A DNA stretch of 64,000 nucleotides from a virus (Duplodnaviria; Heunggongvirae; Uroviricota; Caudoviricetes). The translations under genes were made by a program, and so were the position numbers. Positions 2,881 to 34,089 of the stretch are shown piece after piece. Where the stretch lies: positions 22,818-86,817 of IMG/VR virus record IMGVR_UViG_3300013126_000015, one strand, 5' to 3'. The stretch's first letter is position 1, and each line of letters opens with the position of its first letter. A model generated the notes under the pieces. The model saw only the letters and a program-made list of their open reading frames with translations, was not told the origin of the DNA and made no database searches.

Positions 2881-3147
2881 ATGAAATCGATTGATGTTGT
2901 AAATGCTATCCTGAACAATGGTTATTCAAATGATGAATTGAATAATATCGCAATGGCAATAAAACATGCCCGACACAATCAAGCCATTGTTAATAAGTTT
3001 ACTCTTAAAGTCGGTCAAAATGTACAATTCAATCATGCCGGTATTACCCGTCACGGTACAATCAAAAAAATCAATCGAACCACAATGACTGTTTCAACTG
3101 ATGCCGGATTGTGGAAAGTCCCAGCTAACATGCTAACATTGGTATAA
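2881..3147 (+). CDS. hypothetical protein (88 aa)
   Basis: ATG ORF with AAGG SD. Confidence 0.5.
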   Translation: MKSIDVVNAILNNGYSNDELNNIAMAIKHARHNQAIVNKFTLKVGQNVQFNHAGITRHGTIKKINRTTMTVSTDAGLWKVPANMLTLV

Positions 3148-3150
3148 ATC

Positions 3151-3555
3151 ATGTCTCCAATTCAAACAGCTCAAAATATCGCAATCAGATTGTTTTTTTC
3201 CAATGTAAATGGCGATGAAAATGATGCTTATAATCATTTATATGAATGTGATAATCCTTACACCACTTACATCGATGATCATTTCGTTGGTAAACCATTT
3301 CAACCTTGGCAACCATTCGAATTTCGTACCGTAGCCGATATTCAAGAATATGTCGAAAATCTGGTCAATGACATTTTCAGATCAACCAATGAACCAGATG
3401 ATGGTGAAGAAGTCGGTGAAAATGCCCCAGAATCATCCACCAGTGATGCGGTTGAATGTCCTGAATGTCATAGCACCACTATAACAAAGAAAGGTCGTGA
3501 TGGCAATCGTCAACGGTTTAAATGTAAAGATTGTGGAAAACATTTCTATCAATAA
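3151..3555 (+). CDS. hypothetical protein with C-terminal transposase-like zinc-ribbon (CPECHS...CKDCGKHF)
   Basis: C4 zinc-ribbon motif resembling IS1/IS1595 transposase N-terminal DNA-binding domains. Confidence 0.45.
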   Translation: MSPIQTAQNIAIRLFFSNVNGDENDAYNHLYECDNPYTTYIDDHFVGKPFQPWQPFEFRTVADIQEYVENLVNDIFRSTNEPDDGEEVGENAPESSTSDAVECPECHSTTITKKGRDGNRQRFKCKDCGKHFYQ

Positions 3556-3559
3556 TCTC

Positions 3560-3587
3560 TTGACATTCTGAAATAATCCTGTATCAT
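3560..3587 (+). promoter_or_regulatory. sigma70-type early promoter (TTGACA 3560-3565, TATCAT 3582-3587)
   Basis: 16-nt spacer. Confidence 0.5.
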
Positions 3588-3620
3588 ATAACCATCTTCA
3601 AACGATACAGGATTCAAATC

Positions 3621-3812
3621 ATGAACACCAAACAGGCATACACATTCATTGTATTCATTATCAATAATGGATACGTTCAATATCGAACTGATACCAATGC
3701 TACCGGTTCATCACCAACAACACATCATAACAAAACATCACAACAAGTGATCGATGAATATCTCGAATCATTTAGAAAATATTATCATGATGTAGAATAC
3801 GAAATCATATAG
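3621..3812 (+). CDS. hypothetical protein (63 aa)
   Basis: ATG ORF. Confidence 0.45.
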   Translation: MNTKQAYTFIVFIINNGYVQYRTDTNATGSSPTTHHNKTSQQVIDEYLESFRKYYHDVEYEII

Positions 3813-3942
3813 GGTTCCCGCTGCGCTATCTCTATATGATACCTGTATGGTCGAGGGTTCCCGCTGCGCTATCTAGCGATGCTCAATTGTGGTAGGTTCC
3901 CGCTGCGCTATCTAGCGATGCTCAATTGTGGTAGGTTCCCGC
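3811..3942. repeat. GC-rich tandem direct repeat: GGTTCCCGCTGCGCTATCT x3 plus partial 4th; two exact 39/40-bp units 3855-3894 and 3895-3933
   Basis: read directly; lies between stop of gene 3621..3812 and promoter at 3952. Confidence 0.8.
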
Positions 3943-3951
3943 AAATATCTC

Positions 3952-3979
3952 TTGACATTCTCAAATTTTCAGGTATCAT
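3952..3979 (+). promoter_or_regulatory. sigma70-type early promoter (TTGACA 3952-3957, TATCAT 3974-3979)
   Basis: 16-nt spacer. Confidence 0.5.
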
Positions 3980-4011
3980 ATACACATATTCAAATCAGAT
4001 GAGATTAGATC

Positions 4012-4269
4012 ATGTCTACTAAAAAATATATCGACCTAGCCGATCAAATCAAAAATCAACTCAACATTGCATTCAAACGTAGAGATGCTCCAATGTTCAT
4101 CTACTATCAACAAATGCAAAATGATCCTAATATCATTGCCTTCGCATCATATGAAACATTCAAGGGTTCATGGGCATATCAAGAATGGTATAAAAAGAAT
4201 AGACCAGCTATCGATGAATTTGTAAAGAATAATTATAACCGTTATCAAATTATATGGAGCGCAACATAA
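4012..4269 (+). CDS. hypothetical protein (85 aa)
   Basis: ATG ORF. Confidence 0.5.
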   Translation: MSTKKYIDLADQIKNQLNIAFKRRDAPMFIYYQQMQNDPNIIAFASYETFKGSWAYQEWYKKNRPAIDEFVKNNYNRYQIIWSAT

Positions 4270-4577
4270 TGAACTCTGTTAAACAATCTGATAATATTTG
4301 CACCGTTGGATATAGAAATATCTGGGGAAACTTTACACAATCTGAAATCAATCTATTGTGTAATGCGGTCAAAGAAGGTAGATTATGTTCAACTCAATAT
4401 ACAGAACGTTGGGATATAAATCACCCTGAACGTTTAGACAAATATATTCAATATCGCAAACGTCATAATCTATATGTAATGGACTTGTGGGGTTTCTATT
4501 TCGATTATCCCGCACATCTTAATGATAGAGTTTGGCAAATCATTAACACATGGATGCCCCTACTATCTAATCAATAG
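4269..4577 (+). CDS. hypothetical protein (102 aa), TAATG overlap with upstream gene
   Basis: ATG 4269 overlaps stop 4267-4269, in frame with track ORF 4254. Confidence 0.45.
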   Translation: MNSVKQSDNICTVGYRNIWGNFTQSEINLLCNAVKEGRLCSTQYTERWDINHPERLDKYIQYRKRHNLYVMDLWGFYFDYPAHLNDRVWQIINTWMPLLSNQ

Positions 4578-4688
4578 TTTCACATGATGTTTCACATGAT
4601 GAGCGCACCGCGCCATCACCGATCACATTATTAAAATTCTATCATATCATCTTATCAAAAATCTGCTGAATAGTTCACAATTTTAAAC

Positions 4689-4716
4689 TTGACATTCTAC
4701 CGGATTATGGTATCTT
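4689..4716 (+). promoter_or_regulatory. candidate early promoter (TTGACA 4689-4694, TATCTT 4711-4716); second TTGACA at 4744-4749
   Basis: read directly; weaker -10. Confidence 0.35.
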
Positions 4717-4805
4717 ATATCCAACGATTTAGGAAATGATTGCTTGACAATCTTTCTAAAATCTGAAATAATATACTCACTTTCAAAACATATAGGAAAA
4801 AAGCC

Positions 4806-5300
4806 ATGACTACCGAATCCAGAACCACTCTTCGCGATGTTGTTGATAGTCCATTGTTCGACGCTATTTTGGGGCGTAAAAAAGGACAATTCGCTACCGT
4901 ATCAACTGAACGTGAATGCAAAGTCAGAAAAGGTAAAGATCCGATTCAAAAACACTCTACCTTTACAATTCGGGTCGGTGTCAATTATGATAACCAAGCC
5001 GCAGTCGTCGAAAAAAGTGAAAACGGTGATTTGCCTAGTGAAAACAATGGTTTACCATGGGGCGAATGGGTCGATGGATATTTTCCATACTTGATCGAAC
5101 ATAAAGGATTATACTACGTCAGACTGACTCCAGTCTACGGAAACGATAACAACAAACAAACAGCATCATACTATCGCAATGGTGTGGAAATTTCACGCGA
5201 TGAAGCGCAAGCCGATTGTTTGGCAAGTGAATTTCCAAAAGAAAAAACAGAACATAATGCTATGACTGTCAAATTTGATAGCATTGTCACAGTAAAATAA
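4806..5300 (+). CDS. hypothetical protein (164 aa)
   Basis: ATG ORF. Confidence 0.5.
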   Translation: MTTESRTTLRDVVDSPLFDAILGRKKGQFATVSTERECKVRKGKDPIQKHSTFTIRVGVNYDNQAAVVEKSENGDLPSENNGLPWGEWVDGYFPYLIEHKGLYYVRLTPVYGNDNNKQTASYYRNGVEISRDEAQADCLASEFPKEKTEHNAMTVKFDSIVTVK

Positions 5301-5554: not shown

Positions 5555-5588
5555 GCGGATAATGTGAACAAAATCTCACATTATCCGC
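5555..5588 (+). terminator. 13-bp perfect inverted repeat GCGGATAATGTGA-N8-TCACATTATCCGC hairpin
   Basis: read directly, 3' of gene 5369..5548; followed by TTGACTTT. Confidence 0.45.
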
Positions 5589-5663
5589 TTGACTTTCCAT
5601 CCAAAGTTTGAAATAATATACGCACGTTCTGGATGAACAGAAGCCGCTATAAGCGGTGGCCCT

Positions 5664-6332
5664 TTAAAGGCTAGACCAGCTCGATCTTAAAAAAATAATA
5701 TGATTGTATAATGGATGATTAACTGATTCAGGTAATAACTTATCTGATTTTAATATATTATCTAATTTCCATAATGGTCTTAAATTAGAATAATGATTTA
5801 ATAATAGCAATTCATCATAATTATTGGCAAAAGATAATGGCACTATATGATCTATATCCCATAAGTTTCTATTATCCCATGTCATATTATATAAAAACAA
5901 TGATTCGATATGAAGTTTAAACGTATTATAGTCACACCCTAATATATTAGTGGTTAATGATAATTTAGTATAACCTGAACGCTTAATAGCTTTTTTAATC
6001 ATTCCTCTAATACTGGATTTTAATTTTAATAATGTTTCATCCTTTTTCTGTGTTGGTTTTTTATATTTAATACTGATACATTGTTTGCACCATGATTTAT
6101 ATCCTGTCTTAGTTGAGTTATCAGGATGAAAATCCTCAACAGAACGTACCACGTTGCATTTTGAGCATTGTTTGTGTGATATGGCATCATGTATAAGGGA
6201 TTGTCTAAAATCTTTGTCATACGCTTTACAGCATGCCTTACATGATGATTTATACCCGTCTTTAGTTTCTTTGCTTCGATAGTAGTCTGATAATGATTTA
6301 TCAATCAAACATTTTTTACATTGCTTTATCAT
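5664..6332 (-). CDS. HNH homing endonuclease (Mob-like) with two N-terminal CxxC...CxxC zinc-finger modules
   Basis: DIDHIVP HNH motif; GGAG SD; opposite orientation within early + strand cluster. Confidence 0.7.
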   Translation of the reverse strand: MIKQCKKCLIDKSLSDYYRSKETKDGYKSSCKACCKAYDKDFRQSLIHDAISHKQCSKCNVVRSVEDFHPDNSTKTGYKSWCKQCISIKYKKPTQKKDETLLKLKSSIRGMIKKAIKRSGYTKLSLTTNILGCDYNTFKLHIESLFLYNMTWDNRNLWDIDHIVPLSFANNYDELLLLNHYSNLRPLWKLDNILKSDKLLPESVNHPLYNHIIFLRSSWSSL

Positions 6333-6437
6333 AATAACTCCATGGTGTCAATAACTATTTATCTTTCCAAGGTAGGCTGTCTATAATTTATAAACGGTAC
6401 TAGTTCACAATTTTTTACATAATGATGAAAATAATTA

Positions 6438-6465
6438 TTGACAATCTAAAAAAAACAAGTAGAAT
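6438..6465 (+). promoter_or_regulatory. sigma70-type promoter (TTGACA 6438-6443, TAGAAT 6460-6465)
   Basis: 16-nt spacer. Confidence 0.45.
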
Positions 6466-6474
6466 AATATCCAT

Positions 6475-6516
6475 GTTCTGGAAGCGATAGTCGCATCCAG
6501 AACGGGCATTAAGCCC
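6475..6516 (+). other. two stem-loops in 5' leader of gene 6551 (GTTCTGGA...TCCAGAAC with inner GCGA/TCGC; GGGC-ATTAA-GCCC)
   Basis: read directly. Confidence 0.5.
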
Positions 6517-6550
6517 ACCCCAGCAATGGGAATAATTTTAGGTAATTATC

Positions 6551-13550: not shown

Positions 13551-14096
13551 TTATGCAGTAGTCAAGTTATGTTTATGAATCCAGAATTGTAGTTTATCTA
13601 ATTCTATGTCATTGATCCAAAATTCTTCATATTCAATATTGCCATTATCGAAATATCTGGTTACTGCAGGGCCATTATCGTTATGTCTGTTGCCATTGAT
13701 CCAAAATCCTTCTTCAATGATATTGCCATTTTCGGAATAATAGATTGATGCAGGTCCATTCTCATTGTGTGTTTTGCCATTAATGGAATATCGTTCATAC
13801 CTGATATTACCATTTGGATGAAATTCAACAATTGCAGGACCATATTCGTTATGGTATCTACCGAGTATGAGGTATTGTTTAGATTCAATATTACCATTCT
13901 CCCAATAAGAAATATATGCAGGCTCGTTGATATTATGTCGTTGGCCATTCTCCCAATATTCTGTTGATGCTATAGTACCATTATCGTAATAAGTAATGAT
14001 TGGATTCGGCATAATATTGTGATTTATTTTATTAAGTGTAGATATATTATACCATGATATTGAGTGGATGTCAAGTGATAGATCATAATTCTGCAA
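13551..14096 (-). CDS. MORN-repeat protein (>=6 repeats YxENGxxxxxxYWxNG)
   Basis: repeat pattern in translation. Confidence 0.55.
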   Translation of the reverse strand: MQNYDLSLDIHSISWYNISTLNKINHNIMPNPIITYYDNGTIASTEYWENGQRHNINEPAYISYWENGNIESKQYLILGRYHNEYGPAIVEFHPNGNIRYERYSINGKTHNENGPASIYYSENGNIIEEGFWINGNRHNDNGPAVTRYFDNGNIEYEEFWINDIELDKLQFWIHKHNLTTA

Positions 14097-22325: not shown

Positions 22326-23020
22326 TATTTTTCAAACCTTGTGGTAATTGGGTCAATTAATACTGCTTGCCCATTTTTTCTTCTCATGATATTATTAAAG
22401 TGCATATCAGGTTCAAATTGATTATTTCTGAATAATGGCTCTAATATTCTTAATGCTTGGGAAAATTGTTTATTTGTAGTTGAATGTCGAATTTTATTTC
22501 TGGTATTATCATCAAAAAATGCTTTCGAAAATTTAACATGGGCTGGGAATTTTCCACTAGGATCAGTCGAGTTGACAATATCCATTATTCCTAGATTATT
22601 ACACAATAATTCTACACCATTATTTGGATAGTCAAATAATCGTTCCATTACAATTAATAATTGATATTTTGCCTTTGATTGTTCTGGTTCCAAAAAGAAA
22701 TCATGTTGTTGTTCAAACCATTCCATATCATCATATGAAAATTTACTTATATCATATAATTTGAATTTAAGGATTTTTGGAAAGAATTGGTTTTCTGGAT
22801 GATTATGGCATACTCTTAAAAATTGATATGCTGGATCTGATGGACCACTTATTGCAACAAATTTAAGGATGATATTCGGGTTATTTTGAACAGCATATGC
22901 TATAGCTTGAATTCCATTTCCAAGATATGATAATTGTGGTTTATTAATTACACCAGATAATGGTTTTTTTGATGTGGGTATTTCTATTTTCTTTTCTAAG
23001 ATGAGTTCATGAATTTTCAT
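22325..23020 (-). CDS. kinase-like paralog with CTS-like N-terminus (MKIHELILE); degenerate catalytic motif
   Basis: C-terminus ...NGQAVLIDP paralogous to 23024 gene. Confidence 0.4.
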   Translation of the reverse strand: MKIHELILEKKIEIPTSKKPLSGVINKPQLSYLGNGIQAIAYAVQNNPNIILKFVAISGPSDPAYQFLRVCHNHPENQFFPKILKFKLYDISKFSYDDMEWFEQQHDFFLEPEQSKAKYQLLIVMERLFDYPNNGVELLCNNLGIMDIVNSTDPSGKFPAHVKFSKAFFDDNTRNKIRHSTTNKQFSQALRILEPLFRNNQFEPDMHFNNIMRRKNGQAVLIDPITTRFEK

Positions 23021-25121: not shown

Positions 25122-27626
25122 TTATTTACCGTTATCAACGATAATACTTGTTGAATATGTGATACCACCTAAAACATAACCTTTAGTTGAATCAGCATCA
25201 AAACCAATTCCGAAAGATTTAGCGGTACCTTTCCAAGATATTTTAGCACAATCAAGGACGGTTACCTGTTTAGTACCAATTGTAACAACATTACCATTTA
25301 CCGCAGTGATCTTAGCATGAATATCACTTGCTGATTTAGCACCAGCTGGTGTTACACAACTTCCAGCAGGAACTGGGGTTGGTGCTAATGTAGGCACTGG
25401 GGTGCTAGTTGGTGCAGCAGTTGGGACCGGTGTAGCAGTAGGTGCAACTGTTGGTACAGGTGTTGAAGTAGGAATTGCTGTTGGCACTGGAGTGCTAGTA
25501 GGCAATGGGGTACTTGTAGGTACAGCTGTAGGCACCGGTGTAGCTGTAGGAGCAACAGTTGGAACCGGAGTAGCAGTTGCAACGACTGGAGCTGGATCTA
25601 ACGTAATAGTAGTGGCTTCACAGAATACACCAGTTTGATCTTTAACACCAGCATATGTTGCTAATGATCCAGCAGCAAACGTACCTGTCCCGCCAACTAC
25701 GACACCAGTATAATGGACCATTGCGTTTGCCGTAGTAAATGCAGGGTTTGCACCTCTTAATTGAGTGAAACCGGTAATCGGTTCTTGAACACCAGAACAC
25801 GCAGGAGTATTAATAGTCAAATCCAATGTTTCAGATGCAGCAGTTCCAGCAGAATCGGTCAAATCAAATTGAATCGGATAAACACCACTGGTTCCTTGTG
25901 TACCATTAGTATTATCTGGAGCGGCTGGTGTGCCGTACAATTGAATACCATCAAATAACAAACCATTTGGAAGTGGTAAACTAACTGCATTAATAGCAAT
26001 GGTATAAGGAGCGATGCCACCAGTTACACTAATCGGTGTATTAGGCATTGCAACACCTTCAGTCAACACTGGAAGACCTAGAGTAGTAAATGCTAATGCT
26101 GGAACAGGAACAACTACTGGAGCTGGTTGACCATTAGCTAACAATACTTGAACTGTATAAGCTTTAGTAGAAACATTACCATCAGTATCAGTTACATTGA
26201 TAGAAAAGTCATATTTACCAGGAACAGTTGGAGTACCTTCAACAATACCACTATCCAACCCAACAGTCAACCCATCAGGAACTTGACCAGTTGTAGTGAT
26301 TTTATATGGAGAATTACCACCATAAACTGTAGATAATGGAGCCATTTTAGTGTTAACTTTAATATCAGCAATTGCTTCAGCTTGAGTCAATGGCATAACG
26401 TCATTGAAACCAACCATGTTTTCAGAGATAAAGTCACCTACAACAACTACAGCAGAACAATCATAAGAATAACTATCACCTTGCGTATCAGTAATAGTTA
26501 CTGCATTTAATGATGCCGCACCATGTTTACCATCTGGACCAACAGTATCACACATTTGTTCATGTGTTTCACCATCAAATGACCCAGTTGTAGCTGAACC
26601 AGTTGCAGCATTTACGCCAGATGTTAGAGCAGGATCACCATTACCAAATCTGAAGTAGGTATATTTGCGAGTAATAACTTCATCATTAGCTACTTTTTCA
26701 GCAGCACCTACATGTTCTTCTTTAGGTTGTGGTTTACAGACTTTTGGATCTGGATCAACGCAAGCTTTAGCTTTAGGTGGCTTTTGAATCAAATACCATT
26801 CAGATTCAACTTGATTAGGTTCACCATTTTGCCAATCAGGAAGACCATCACCATTTTTATCTTCATTAACTAATGCTTTAACCAATTGGTCAGCACCACC
26901 AGCAACTTTTTTACCATGTACTGACGTTTTTTCAACTCTCAACCAAACAGGTTCACCCCATTGAGCAGGAGCTGGTTCAACTTTTTCTTTAGGAGCTTGC
27001 TGAACAGGGACTACGTTAACTACCGCAGGTTGAAGAGGAATCGGTTGAGCTGGGGCTGGTTGTACTGGAGGTGGAGCTACGAACGTTGGAATTGCCATAG
27101 TAACACCAGGAGCAGATCCACCCAAACTAGCACCACGAACAAGACCAGAGCCTTGTTGATTCAACCAATAAAATCCAACGGATTTAGGAGTACCCATTGC
27201 ACCAGTTGCGAAATGTTCACATCCTGTATCAGCAGCAGATACACAAGAATGTCCACCGGTTGACCATGTTGAAGTGTCTGCAGCAATCGTACCACGAGGA
27301 CGAACACCATTTGCATCAGGTTTCAACTCGTAATGTACGATAGCATGAATTACACCAGCAGCATCAGTATATTCACCCACAGTTGGTGCACCATAACGTG
27401 CTGAATACCATGTATAGCCAATTTGAGCAGAATGCAAACCTTCAAAGTCTTGCTCAAAACCGTATGCCATTTGACCTGTATCATTCGCGACATCAAAGTT
27501 ACCAACAGATACGGCTTGTGCACCAATACCTACACCACATTTACCAAATCCATCACATATAGTGAATGCTTCTGCAGTCGTAATAAAAAATCCCAATAAT
27601 GCCGGGATGTACTTAATATATTTCAT
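25122..27626 (-). CDS. secreted protein with signal peptide, Ig-like (He_PIG-type) domains and ~70-aa Pro/Thr-rich linker; track start 27638, ATG 27626 preferred
   Basis: MKYIKYIPALLGFFITTAEA signal; TPVPT repeats; GGAGA SD before ATG 27626; GC-richer codon usage. Confidence 0.55.
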   Translation of the reverse strand: MKYIKYIPALLGFFITTAEAFTICDGFGKCGVGIGAQAVSVGNFDVANDTGQMAYGFEQDFEGLHSAQIGYTWYSARYGAPTVGEYTDAAGVIHAIVHYELKPDANGVRPRGTIAADTSTWSTGGHSCVSAADTGCEHFATGAMGTPKSVGFYWLNQQGSGLVRGASLGGSAPGVTMAIPTFVAPPPVQPAPAQPIPLQPAVVNVVPVQQAPKEKVEPAPAQWGEPVWLRVEKTSVHGKKVAGGADQLVKALVNEDKNGDGLPDWQNGEPNQVESEWYLIQKPPKAKACVDPDPKVCKPQPKEEHVGAAEKVANDEVITRKYTYFRFGNGDPALTSGVNAATGSATTGSFDGETHEQMCDTVGPDGKHGAASLNAVTITDTQGDSYSYDCSAVVVVGDFISENMVGFNDVMPLTQAEAIADIKVNTKMAPLSTVYGGNSPYKITTTGQVPDGLTVGLDSGIVEGTPTVPGKYDFSINVTDTDGNVSTKAYTVQVLLANGQPAPVVVPVPALAFTTLGLPVLTEGVAMPNTPISVTGGIAPYTIAINAVSLPLPNGLLFDGIQLYGTPAAPDNTNGTQGTSGVYPIQFDLTDSAGTAASETLDLTINTPACSGVQEPITGFTQLRGANPAFTTANAMVHYTGVVVGGTGTFAAGSLATYAGVKDQTGVFCEATTITLDPAPVVATATPVPTVAPTATPVPTAVPTSTPLPTSTPVPTAIPTSTPVPTVAPTATPVPTAAPTSTPVPTLAPTPVPAGSCVTPAGAKSASDIHAKITAVNGNVVTIGTKQVTVLDCAKISWKGTAKSFGIGFDADSTKGYVLGGITYSTSIIVDNGK

Positions 27627-27736
27627 TAATTTCTCCATAAAAATTTAAATTGTCAGCGTCAATATTATCAGACACTAATATATATTTATGGTAATGCTAC
27701 CATAAATTCTGTGTGTTATATCAAAGATTTATAATT

Positions 27737-29821: not shown

Positions 29822-31282
29822 CTATGCTCTAGCTCGTGATTTTACTTCGTCCCACGACTGCCGGTATTCTCTAAACCCGTCTTTGTACCACAATCTCCAT
29901 CCAGCCGCTGGAGTCAAAAAATTAAAGATATTTCCTTCTGATATAGCGTCATATACTTCAATGTCACCATTTTCATTCTCTCTGCAGCGAACTAATCCTT
30001 TTAATGATTTTTTTCCAGAATCAGTAATAGGATCTTTAATAGTAGCAACCCATTTTCCATATCTAAAATTTGCAGTTGATTTGAAACTGAAACCAAAATC
30101 ATCACGCGAACCAAAATGGGTGATACCTGCTCCAGAACCTAAGCAAAAGTTGTCCATAGCAAAGCCAGCATCAACCCACCCTTGACAAATTTCTCGAACT
30201 GTATTTACTTTTACACCATCTCCCTGTATTACACCAGTTGATGGGTGTAATACCTTGTACCCTTTATTATTAATAGTTACCCCAAAGGTAGCTTCCCAAT
30301 CTTTGCCTACTAATCCTGGTTCGATTGTCATATCTCCGGTATCTGGTCTAGCAATCATGCGCCCACCAGATGCCAAAATTCTATCTTTTAATCTAGTACC
30401 AAGATATTCTCTCACAAATCTTCTTGAATCATATGTATCAATCACTGCTGACATAAATGGTAAACCAATGCCGCGTTTATGTCTTTCCACTGCCTCAAAT
30501 AATCTATCTACTACCATAACAGCTGCACCGAAATCATCTTTATTTTCCGCATCTGAATGAGCACATGATACACTATGTTCACTCGCTTCAATAGATGAAG
30601 TTGATGGTTTATATGTTCCATACAAGCGTTTAATATACCCATTTGCTCTAATACAGTCTGACCCATCAAATAGTGCGGCATGTGCAATACCAGAGATTAC
30701 TGCTGCTTCATCTGGACTATCAGCACTTCTGTCGCCAAACTCATGCATCATGTAGTTAACATTGGTGGTGTCAGTTCCGGTAAGTTCACAGAATTCTATA
30801 AGAGTCAACCTCATTGCTCTGCAAACAGATGCAACAGTAGACATTTTCCAAATCAATGCTTGTGAAAATGTTTCAAAATAGGTTACTAACCACGCAAAAT
30901 TAGACACAGTATTAATAATACCAACTATTGGCGTTTGTGGTGCAACTATTCGGCCTTCTTCTACTCCATAAATTGCTAATGGTATTTTTCCATCAAGTTC
31001 TCGTACAATACGTTCCCATCCTTCTCTATTGAAGTGGTATCCTTGTTCAGTAACTTCAACTTCTGCTTCATCAATCATTTCCATTGTGATTCTAGTAGCT
31101 GCAAAAATTGAAGATAATAGGGTAATACCCATTGAAACAATATGGGTAGAATATGAACTTGACTTTCGTGGAACCATATTTGCATAACCATATTCGTCGC
31201 CAGTAGGTGCTTCTAGCCAGTGATTAATTTTATACCCATCTGCACACAAAATTATATTAAATGGTTTTAAATGTTCTAACAT
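29822..31282 (-). CDS. nadV: nicotinamide phosphoribosyltransferase
   Basis: full-length NAMPT-like translation; GAGGA SD. Confidence 0.75.
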   Translation of the reverse strand: MLEHLKPFNIILCADGYKINHWLEAPTGDEYGYANMVPRKSSSYSTHIVSMGITLLSSIFAATRITMEMIDEAEVEVTEQGYHFNREGWERIVRELDGKIPLAIYGVEEGRIVAPQTPIVGIINTVSNFAWLVTYFETFSQALIWKMSTVASVCRAMRLTLIEFCELTGTDTTNVNYMMHEFGDRSADSPDEAAVISGIAHAALFDGSDCIRANGYIKRLYGTYKPSTSSIEASEHSVSCAHSDAENKDDFGAAVMVVDRLFEAVERHKRGIGLPFMSAVIDTYDSRRFVREYLGTRLKDRILASGGRMIARPDTGDMTIEPGLVGKDWEATFGVTINNKGYKVLHPSTGVIQGDGVKVNTVREICQGWVDAGFAMDNFCLGSGAGITHFGSRDDFGFSFKSTANFRYGKWVATIKDPITDSGKKSLKGLVRCRENENGDIEVYDAISEGNIFNFLTPAAGWRLWYKDGFREYRQSWDEVKSRARA

Positions 31283-33054: not shown

Positions 33055-34089
33055 TCACCTGCATATTGAAACACCCCAAGTAATTATCGAAAGATGGTCC
33101 TCGAACAAATATTCCTCCATATCTAATACATCATCAATTGGAAACCACTTGGCAAATCTAGCATCATCAGATCCTTTAACTTTAGACAACGGTCCAGATG
33201 GTAATTCTATTGCATAAGCATGTGTGATAGTTCGTCCTCGCAATGATCGTGACGGTTTATCGAACACCTGCGTTCCTTTTATAGAACCTCTTAATACTGG
33301 CTCTGGTATTTTGATTTTAGTTTCTTCCCTTAACTCTCTTATAACACCATCAATCAAATATTCGGACTGGTTTACAAATCCCCCAGGAAGTGCCCATAAT
33401 CCTTTTCCAGGACTCGCTTTACGTTGCACCAATAGGACATGACCTGATTGAATCACAACAGCGTCAGTGGTCACAAAAGTGGGTGGGTATGGAGCATTGT
33501 CCCAGGATTTTTTATAACCTTGAATATGATTAAACTCATCAACCAGATTTTTATAATCATCACTTTTTGTCCACTCTCTTAAATCGTTCTGCAGTTGGGA
33601 ATCAATTAACGGTCTATCTTTCCAATTAAATATTGCTCCAGTAAATAATTGTTCCCGGACAGTGGTTGCATCAATATCAATGATATGATCGGTATTAATA
33701 AAATCCCATTGTGGGAAATAATCAATATAATAGGAAGTAGAATCTTTTTTGCAGCCCACGATACCAATTTTTGGATCGGTAATGCCACATGTTTCTTTTT
33801 TGACTATTCGTTGAACTTGTTGAATCCACTCTTGATCAACTCGGAAATCACGGATACCATGACAACTAATTCTGGATGAATCTTGTTTTGGTAGTTGATT
33901 CAGTAACATTGCAGCACGTTCATACCACTTCCACGGGTTTTTAATCGTTCGTGGTTGAAAGCTGGAGCCGAATAATACTATTACTTTATTTGAACGTTCT
34001 AATGCTGTAGTTACATTATGAACATGTGCGTGAGTTGGTGGTTGCATTCTGCCAATGTATACAATGGCATCATATTTTTGTTTTGTCAT
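33055..34089 (-). CDS. natV: bifunctional NMN adenylyltransferase / Nudix ADP-ribose pyrophosphatase
   Basis: N-terminal HxxH nucleotidyltransferase motif (PPTHAHVH) plus Nudix box (GGFVNQSEYLIDGVIRELREETK). Confidence 0.7.
   Translation of the reverse strand: MTKQKYDAIVYIGRMQPPTHAHVHNVTTALERSNKVIVLFGSSFQPRTIKNPWKWYERAAMLLNQLPKQDSSRISCHGIRDFRVDQEWIQQVQRIVKKETCGITDPKIGIVGCKKDSTSYYIDYFPQWDFINTDHIIDIDATTVREQLFTGAIFNWKDRPLIDSQLQNDLREWTKSDDYKNLVDEFNHIQGYKKSWDNAPYPPTFVTTDAVVIQSGHVLLVQRKASPGKGLWALPGGFVNQSEYLIDGVIRELREETKIKIPEPVLRGSIKGTQVFDKPSRSLRGRTITHAYAIELPSGPLSKVKGSDDARFAKWFPIDDVLDMEEYLFEDHLSIITWGVSICR

Follow-up and report, generated by a model that had tools for sequence, protein, structure and literature searches.

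Phased direct repeats that bind proteins are known from the iterons of plasmids and phages, typically spaced at about 22 bp, and from operator arrays such as parC/ParR and the lambda O-protein sites. The nut sites of lambda consist of boxA and a boxB hairpin, CRISPR repeats are 28–37 nucleotides (nt) long, and type III antitoxin arrays (ToxI) have a phage counterpart, pseudo-ToxI, that expands by recombination between units. Here we describe an element with likenesses to these systems, the R module, found between two early genes in a 64,000-nt stretch of a Caudoviricetes genome (IMG/VR record IMGVR_UViG_3300013126_000015, positions 22,818 to 86,817; the whole stretch is referred to as the window). 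The R module consists of two direct copies of a 14-nt motif, AGAGTKCCCRYTGY, upstream of an early promoter. It also recalls the PeSLs of T4-type phages, composite terminator/promoter motifs that mediate shuffling (PMC4122927, PMC2839356) and form a series of elements within each genome (PMC4122927). The repeats of Racr (PMC10651486) and Cracr (bioRxiv 10.1101/2024.10.29.618823) copy the full host CRISPR repeat with its Cas-binding structure, the spacers of Cracr match host promoters and the spacer-like sequences in phage Cracr arrays can be as short as 21–24 nt (bioRxiv 10.1101/2024.10.29.618823).

From sequence comparisons, the R module is best classed as a previously undescribed cis-element of the early region in a clade of uncultured large phages, probably jumbo phages, and as a kind of phased repeat/stem-loop promoter-boundary element. 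Relatives were first found by protein searches with the two small open reading frames (ORFs) that flank it, which revealed a diverged lineage (L011/L012; 76–77% amino-acid identity) with the gene order of the window. In the intergenic region of this lineage a perfect 10-bp hairpin is flanked by two copies of AGAGTGCCCACTGC at a distance of 43 nt, and there is no 39-nt tandem repeat such as that of the window. The pair is a diverged form of the window's AGGGTTCCCGCTGC pair, which is likewise spaced at 43 nt. A metagenome scan for two copies of AGNGTNCCCNCTGC 39–47 nt apart gave 16 matches, of which only two contigs low in guanine plus cytosine (GC), L018 and L013, were relevant, and a profile search with the 134-amino-acid product of gene A, an early gene upstream of the module, added L029, L030, L031, L032 and L033. 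The motif pair, together with the gene order, is common to the window and seven lineages (L011/L012, L018, L029, L030, L031, L032 and L033); the pair is also present in L013, which has no proteins in common with the window.

The motif has the consensus AGAGT[T/G]CCC[A/G][C/T]TG[C/T], and its two copies, R1 and R2, are spaced 43 nt from start to start in eight of ten pairs (42 nt in L031, 44 nt in L033). Identity between lineages is 79–100% in the motif versus 24–66% in the 29-nt interval. The spacing is retained where the palindrome that usually occupies this interval has been lost, namely in the window and in both L013 pairs. The stop codon of the preceding early gene marks the start of the module, R1 abutting or overlapping this codon in all eight syntenic lineages; the overlap of TAG with AGAGT is in one register in six of the eight, although the upstream gene differs. 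Orientation relative to the TTGACA promoter is constant in all lineages, L013 included. There is one module in the 64-kb window and one in each related early region (5–8 kb), and each locus carries two to four motif copies, oriented, at 43 or 39 nt. What is common to all lineages is the motif, its pairing at about 43 nt, the orientation and the adjacent promoter; the hairpin is frequent and not universal.

In L013 two motif pairs (563–811; 43 nt within each pair, 69 nt between pairs) are located in a divergent promoter region, flanked by a gene for an HD-domain protein and a very basic 48-amino-acid ORF, with one pair antisense in the 5' leader of the HD gene. L013 may come from a more distant phage, or it may represent a related genome's second module locus. 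The remaining matches of the paired-pattern scan were unrelated tandem or direct repeats, mostly on high-GC contigs (L026, the only one of these that was read, and L024 were dismissed too).

Like a PeSL, the R module combines an intergenic stem-loop with a following early sigma-70-type promoter among small, rapidly exchanged early genes, and gene insertions, deletions and replacements between relatives map beside it. Stem-loop and promoter are both seen in seven relatives; in the window the stem-loop is decayed. The two differ in that there is a single R module in 64 kb, with an oriented 14-nt pair at 43 nt as its defining feature, whereas a PeSL is defined by stem-loop and promoter. The stem-loop of the R module is also dispensable, having been lost in the window and L013. 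With phased direct-repeat arrays the R module shares oriented direct repeats on one helical face, a single locus within the available stretches, an adjoining promoter and small gene of nucleic-acid-binding type, and a copy number of two to four. Unlike these arrays, it mostly has two copies, spaced at 43 nt and not at about 11 or 22 nt, with a palindrome between them; it is without an AT-rich unwinding element or DnaA boxes, and its binder is only putative.

In the window the module is part of a GC-rich island upstream of the promoter at 3952. A 19-mer, GGTTCCCGCTGCGCTATCT, is present in three exact copies (3813, 3856 and 3895), with no further copy in the 64 kb even at up to three mismatches; 0 of 100 shuffled sequences gave any match. 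The 9-mer GGTTCCCGC has four copies in the window, the fourth at 3934–3942, a count that shuffles never reproduced, and Tandem Repeats Finder on 3856–3942 gave a period of 39, 2.2 copies, 100% identity and a score of 174. The tandem repeat is therefore confirmed as genuine and far above chance. From the stop codon of the 63-amino-acid ORF (3621–3812) to the promoter of the 85-amino-acid ORF (ATG at 4012) the sequence reads TAG-GGTTCCCGCTGCGCTATCT-(24 nt)-GGTTCCCGCTGCGCTATCT-AGCGATGCTCAATTGTGGTA-GGTTCCCGCTGCGCTATCT-AGCGATGCTCAATTGTGGTA-GGTTCCCGC-AAATATCTC-TTGACA. This intergenic gap of 199 nt is among the two longest between plus-strand early genes, the others being mostly 1–65 nt and hardly more than a promoter. 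The features of the island are as follows.

3804–3840 (no strand): 9-bp perfect inverted repeat, ATCATATAG / CTATATGAT, which encloses R1 and is specific to the window phage.
3811–3831 (plus strand): R1, the first motif copy, AGGGTTCCCGCTGC with the extension GCTATCT; core GTTCCCGCTGC at 3814–3824.
3825–3853 (plus strand): R1–R2 spacer, 29 nt, homologous to the relatives' palindrome CCCCTATA..loop..TATAGGGG; decayed, about -2.9 kcal/mol and not significant.
3854–3874 (plus strand): R2, AGGGTTCCCGCTGC with GCTATCT, starting 43 nt after the start of R1.
3856–3894 (plus strand): first copy of the 39-nt unit (R2 and a 20-nt tail), from Tandem Repeats Finder and identity.
3895–3933 (plus strand): second copy of the 39-nt unit, a lineage-specific tandem duplicate that adds a motif, R2' (core 3896–3906), 39 nt after R2.
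3934–3942 (plus strand): third motif copy, truncated to GGTTCCCGC, with 9 nt between it and the -35 element.
3970–3988 (no strand): inverted-repeat arm, 19 nt, 89% complementary to its partner at 3827–3845.

The pairing of 3970–3988 with 3827–3845 means that the tail of R1 is an inverted copy of the -10 region of the 3952 promoter. A reading of the same DNA made without database searches (the sequence-only reading) had described a GC-rich tandem repeat of three copies and a truncated fourth between early genes, and in this it was right. It had taken the last two units as exact duplicates of 39 or 40 nt: they (3856–3894 and 3895–3933) are identical, and each is 39 nt long, since 3855 is G and the equivalent 3894 is A. 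The tail of the first copy, given as 23 nt, is 24 nt (3832–3855). A GC content of about 60% had been stated for the island; it is 54.5% for 3811–3942, against a window mean of 32.6%, and 62% is reached only in the peak 60-nt window, which is the maximum of the entire 64 kb. The small hairpin CGCT-ATCT-AGCG, thought to lie in every unit, is in units 2 and 3 and is absent from unit 1 and from all relatives. The promoter placed at 3952 stands, with TTGACA at 3952–3957, a 16-nt spacer and TATCAT ending at 3979.

An independent assembly supports the array. The Logan assembly of SRR11049220 holds the same phage; one contig terminates in ...GGTTCCCGCTGCGCTATCTAGCGATGCTCA and the next opens with TAGCGATGCTCAATTGTGGTAGGTTCCCGC-A, exactly at the repeat. 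In a k=31 de Bruijn graph the two ends are the 30-mers at which a loop branches off, as a tandem 39-nt unit demands, and both duplication-junction k-mers occur in the assembly. As the contigs break at the 30-mers of the loop, the tandem junction exists in the reads. The number of units is at least two, the exact count being beyond what short k-mers and such assemblies can fix.

The tandem 39-mer is absent from all relatives, where R1 and R2 are identical over 14–16 nt; in the window they are identical over 21 nt. Rather than a simple variable-number repeat, the outcome that the sequence-only reading had said would favour a neutral array, the relatives carry the conserved two-copy module. The ancestral form would have had two direct copies of AGAGTKCCCRYTGY 43 nt (about four helix turns) from start to start, usually bracketing a GC-clamped palindrome, and would have extended from the stop codon of the preceding early gene to between a few and about 30 bases upstream of the next near-consensus sigma-70 -35 element, with a third copy 39 nt further on in some lineages. 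Such a copy is present in full in L033 (R3), where it follows R2 by 39 nt as it does in the window, and for this reason the copy at 3934–3942 is probably the remnant of an ancestral R3.

In the window phage, slippage or unequal recombination between R2 and the truncated third copy, through their 9-nt identity GGTTCCCGC, may have doubled the 39 nt; the product would be R2-tail-[R2'-tail]-truncated R3, hence the appearance of 3.2 copies. The observed structure is the exact product of an exchange between the GGTTCCCGC at 3856 and that of the truncated copy. The central palindrome has decayed in this phage, and the 21-nt identity of R1 and R2 suggests that the two were recently homogenised and that the palindrome lost its left arm in the process. 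The 39-nt tandem repeat is best seen as a recent slippage product, probably near-neutral or dosage-changing. The earlier suggestion of a recombination hotspot is supported in part only, in that slippage explains the duplication and gene content differs on both sides.

A second kind of duplication is seen in L032, where an exact 245-nt direct repeat (518–762 and 1365–1609) runs from the end of gene A across the entire module and the promoter into the beginning of the following gene. Either 847 nt have truly been duplicated in tandem or the repeat arose in scaffolding.

The hairpin between R1 and R2 is very stable in seven of the eight syntenic lineages (z = -5.3 to -7.6 versus shuffles), with the stem CCC(C)TATA...TATAGGG(G) and a loop of 3–8 nt that usually contains ACC. 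In the window and both L013 pairs it is not significant, and folding of the whole island on either strand was no better than for shuffled sequence (z = +0.9 and -0.3). A covariance model gave one full-length match in the 64 kb, at 3806–3872 (66 bits). These hairpins are not intrinsic terminators, as in the relatives they run into AGAGTKCCC without a T-run; a terminator scan of the island gave a lone, weak match (3926–3944) with no real T-run.

We tentatively favour the R module as a recognition site, at the DNA level, for a sequence-specific protein beside the early promoter. Each motif copy would be one recognition site, and the binder, probably phage-encoded and early, would sit as two protomers on one face of the DNA and control or insulate transcription at the border between the transcription unit of gene A and the X–C operon downstream. 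The extra copy in the window phage would provide one additional site. Repression, occlusion or a roadblock to read-through would be likelier than activation, because the adjacent promoter is already near consensus (11 of 12 positions). The gene A product is a candidate binder by adjacency only. A DNA site is supported by the spacing of about four turns, constant even without the hairpin, by the constant orientation and position, by the extra copies at +39 nt, and by the single locus beside a gene with a motif of nucleic-acid-binding type. In L013, moreover, the upstream gene is divergent, so that sense read-through is not expected there. The iteron or protein-binding array listed earlier among several options is the putative role with the best comparative support (motif, 43-nt spacing, orientation and promoter position in eight lineages).

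Two elaborations were considered and dropped. Co-evolving specificity, with both copies changing in concert, does not fit L029, L030 and L031, where R1 and R2 differ at the positions concerned, and autoregulation by gene E does not fit the downstream gene, which differs among lineages.

The early regions of large uncultured phages are made up almost entirely of small genes and control sites of unknown role. The R module is a compact, searchable cis-element (AGAGTKCCCRYTGY twice, 43 nt) that has been kept in at least eight lineages amid gene exchange, and is thus a handle for finding its reader protein, the early step controlled and the swapping of cassettes.

Several observations weigh against a DNA-binding site. 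The overlap of R1 with the upstream stop codon in the same register in six of eight lineages hints at a link to translation or mRNA. The constant spacing may result in part from the rarity of insertions and deletions and not from selection. Between the last motif copy and the -35 element there are 5, 13, 13, 14, 14, 18, 29 or 33 nt, distances without helical phasing, which argues against face-of-helix contact with RNA polymerase. The zinc ribbon of gene A is unlikely to be the binding domain, because the L031 homologue lacks it and the module is intact. In the inner stem of the relatives' palindrome, seven of ten base pairs carry compensatory changes on both sides, with a score reached in only 1 of 500 shuffles, in an alignment that was fitted to the model and contains partial and opposite-strand matches; and the stability of this palindrome is as compatible with a hairpin in a transcript as with a palindrome in DNA.

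Several of these points would be accounted for by an RNA-level element in read-through early mRNA, with the hairpin and two single-stranded motifs bound by an RNA-binding protein. We regard this close rival as possible and on balance doubtful; antitermination in the manner of lambda nut, processing, 3'-end stabilisation and translation-coupled control are possible roles. Besides the strong, covarying hairpin in seven lineages, the variable promoter distance and the position of R1 at the upstream stop codon in all eight syntenic lineages, this reading is consistent with a module that is co-directional with early transcription and, in the absence of an intrinsic terminator between it and the upstream gene, expected to be transcribed. 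The variable motif positions (3 A/G, 10 A/G and 11 C/T) keep a 3-bp mini-stem, AGU-NCCC-RYU, with G-U wobble in the sense strand only, a weak hint since a wobble-compatible trio has a chance of about 1 in 8; when the decayed spacers are folded, the sense strand does slightly better than the antisense strand, which is also a weak hint.

The module resembles a nut site in that a linear motif is combined with a hairpin in the early transcript, just past a stop codon, with one or two such sites in each genome. The differences are that there is no sequence similarity, that the R motif is on both sides of the hairpin, that downstream terminators are few and that no N-like gene was identified. Against an RNA element stand the L013 module, which is in a divergent promoter region with no same-strand upstream gene, the window and both L013 pairs, which retain motif and spacing without a significant hairpin, the lack of an Rfam family match and the island's failure to fold better than shuffled sequence.

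A replication origin, or a site for some other DNA transaction that needs only one site, such as packaging, a stop in DNA entry or recombination, is improbable. In this reading an initiator or similar protein would recognise the motif copies as iterons, the palindrome could be extruded as a hairpin, and the promoter would supply transcriptional activation. The occurrence of one module in 64 kb, and one per 5–8-kb early region in relatives, would suit such a function, as would direct repeats phased at about four helical turns in up to four copies, the adjoining strong promoter and the adjoining conserved gene with a zinc ribbon of nucleic-acid-binding type. There are mostly only two copies, however, and iterons are not usually 43 nt apart. 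DnaA-box-like sites are no denser than background, there is no exceptional AT-rich stretch beside the module and no change of GC skew at it, and no replication gene is adjacent, the helicases being 7–54 kb away.

We consider it equally unlikely that the module is a boundary or linker without a dedicated factor, that is, a PeSL-like cassette edge at which short repeats promote cassette exchange and the tandem repeat is neutral. Gene content differs on both sides while the module stays, 9-nt microhomology explains the 39-nt duplication, which is confined to one lineage, and the 245-nt duplicate of L032 includes the module. The window also has other stem-loop-plus-promoter junctions, for example 5555–5588 followed by a -35 element at 5589. 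A passive linker does not, however, require two identical oriented copies, and the motif is conserved far above its surroundings (79–100% versus 24–66%). The fixed-spacing pair, moreover, is found once per 64 kb, as opposed to the series of PeSLs in each genome (PMC4122927).

There is also a small chance that the R module is the cis-site of an undescribed phage-specific system, either an RNA decoy or guide-like mimic or a single DNA site for a genome-wide step. In the RNA version, a transcript with two motif copies around a hairpin would serve as the decoy or mimic for a host defence or RNA-processing protein; in the DNA version, a dedicated early protein, possibly that of gene A, would control staged DNA entry, origin firing or the early-to-middle switch. 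If such a system were real, the tandem expansion would be an adaptive change in site dosage.

In the last explanation the repeats would imitate a host CRISPR repeat, as a decoy or regulatory RNA of the Racr or Cracr kind, or an antitoxin RNA, as a type III mimic like pseudo-ToxI, and would soak up or reprogramme a host defence protein. This is very improbable and largely refuted, as it fails every defining feature checked. The layout of repeat and 'spacer', in short arrays of early non-coding phage DNA, is indeed similar, and the tandem units of about 36–39 nt in a transcribed phage region are shared with ToxI and pseudo-ToxI. The conserved repeat, however, is 14 nt (21 nt in the window phage) and unstructured, without the 3' arm of any Cas6-type hairpin, and had no CRISPR repeat match in the searches made; units 2 and 3, 'spacers' included, are identical and the R1–R2 interval is a conserved palindrome, not a target-matching spacer. 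Rfam searches, with CRISPR-DR and ToxI-type families included, of the window, the island alone and eight related loci gave nothing relevant at gathering thresholds or at E<=10, even with a 161-nt input. The mini-CRISPR, solitary-repeat or anti-CRISPR RNA of the sequence-only reading is not supported by these results. As for an antitoxin, the tandem 39-mer is confined to the window while the conserved feature is the 14-nt pair, no antitoxin family matched and there is no toxin partner: no neighbour is toxin-like, and a Pfam search of the flanking proteins was without match apart from the gene A zinc ribbon. A tempting CRISPR-like annotation is thereby removed, and the tandem repeat itself is of modest import.

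Further resemblances were noted. The sequence GAGTTCCC(G/A)C is close to the first 10–11 nt of type I-E repeats (GAGTTCCCCGC...), which is a possible lead only, and the 39-nt tandem array in an early region resembles the pseudo-ToxI of phage PhiTE. Likenesses to T7-type promoters (TATAGGGAGA) and to the nick regions of MOBQ oriT have no supporting features here; the window has a single site, and no gene for a single-subunit RNA polymerase or relaxase was seen.

Searches for the array and its neighbours elsewhere gave little. The 19-mer had five single hits in 185,579 species genomes, all GC-rich, about the chance expectation and none arrayed; the one hit that was read is in high-GC, apparently coding sequence. 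In IMG/VR the exact 19-mer, the paired-motif pattern, gene E, a 251-amino-acid ORF and a 164-amino-acid ORF were all without match, and in the literature the motif strings turned up solely in primers with no relation to the module.

Small plus-strand genes fill the first ~8 kb of the window, each with a near-consensus promoter (TTGACA-N16/17-TATACT/TATCAT) and a strong AGGAG ribosome-binding site. Beyond this are minus-strand genes for helicases, a methyltransferase, NAMPT, an NMNAT/Nudix protein and a clamp-loader-like ATPase. The window phage, whose source contig is 102 kb, is an uncultured, low-GC and probably large phage. Its replicative helicase and NAMPT are nearest, at 40–50% identity, to those of phages of 285–490 kb, such as PA5oct, Atu_ph07 and RaK2. 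Megablast of 3000–5000 against 50,697 phage records gave no match, and no tRNA or tmRNA was found in a search. The genes and promoter around the module are listed below.

3151–3555 (plus strand): gene A, 134 amino acids; N-terminal domain conserved, InsA-type zinc ribbon at the C-terminus.
3621–3812 (plus strand): gene D, 63 amino acids, an early gene whose TAG stop codon (3810–3812) overlaps the first two bases of R1.
3952–3979 (plus strand): early sigma-70-type promoter, TTGACA (3952–3957), 16 nt, TATCAT; 11 of 12 consensus matches, driving genes E and C.
4012–4577 (plus strand): downstream operon of gene E (85 amino acids, 4012–4269) and gene C (107 amino acids, 4254–4577); C is present in every lineage whose contig extends that far.

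Over 53 nt the 3952 promoter matches the promoter at 3560 with 81% identity. Clustering of the flanking proteins gave the gene order B - A - [D, H, F or nothing] - module - promoter - [E, F, D or I] - C, such that the module keeps its place one gene upstream of C and zero to one gene downstream of A while the intervening genes are swapped. Gene content therefore varies on both sides of the module among relatives.

Gene A is the fixed upstream neighbour, zero to one gene from the module, in all eight syntenic lineages, and its homologues share 43–80% identity. It scores just above the cut-off for Pfam Zn_ribbon_InsA (28.0 versus 26.1 bits). In L031 (2546–3013) the homologue keeps the N-terminal domain, an unrelated acidic C-terminus replaces the zinc ribbon, and the module downstream is intact. 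A tblastn search of gene A against phage records found no match, IMG/VR yielded zinc-ribbon-only matches (L003–L005), none with the module, and a PDB sequence search with the gene A profile gave weak zinc-ribbon matches only. The more distant zinc-ribbon loci L035–L037 have no module. Structure models of genes A and E (predicted template-modelling scores, pTM, of 0.31 and 0.60; mean predicted local distance difference test, pLDDT, about 64–66) were too poor for a fold search.

Other early promoters of the window have structured surroundings. A perfect 13–14-bp hairpin at 5555–5588 (GCGGATAATGTGA...TCACATTATCCGC) stops exactly at the -35 element TTGACT at 5589, a PeSL-type junction. Palindromes that overlap or include the -10 element are present at several early promoters (1033–1049, 2475–2498 and 3575–3614); these could be hairpins only in read-through transcripts from upstream, or operator-like sites. 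The gap at 4577–4688 contains a 12-nt tandem repeat, GTTTCACATGAT (2.1 copies), a GC-rich stretch and the motif CAAAAATCTGCTGAATAGTTCACAATTTT right before TTGACA at 4689. This motif is kept in two relatives (L011, 1135–1162; L032, about 1313–1340), and its core, TAGTTCACAATTTT, reappears at 6401–6414 upstream of the 6438 promoter.

An HNH/endonuclease VII-like ORF (5664–6332, minus strand) lies between two similar segments, 5589–5680 and 6438–6531, each of which is a sigma-70-type promoter followed by a GC-rich leader opening with GTTCTGGA. Outside the island, it is in these leaders that non-coding GC content peaks in the window. The ORF looks like a homing-endonuclease gene inserted in, or duplicating, the promoter-leader region.

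Further into the window, NAMPT and the bifunctional NMNAT/Nudix-like protein (29822–31282 and 33055–34089, both minus strand) form a phage NAD salvage pair with nearest matches in jumbo phages. Tandem repeats also occur in coding sequence, at 25342–25596 in an ORF of 838 amino acids (25122–27638, minus strand; periods of 30, 18 and 12 nt, in a GC-richer part) and at 13610–13799 in one of 181 amino acids (13551–14096, minus strand; 84 nt, 2.3 copies).

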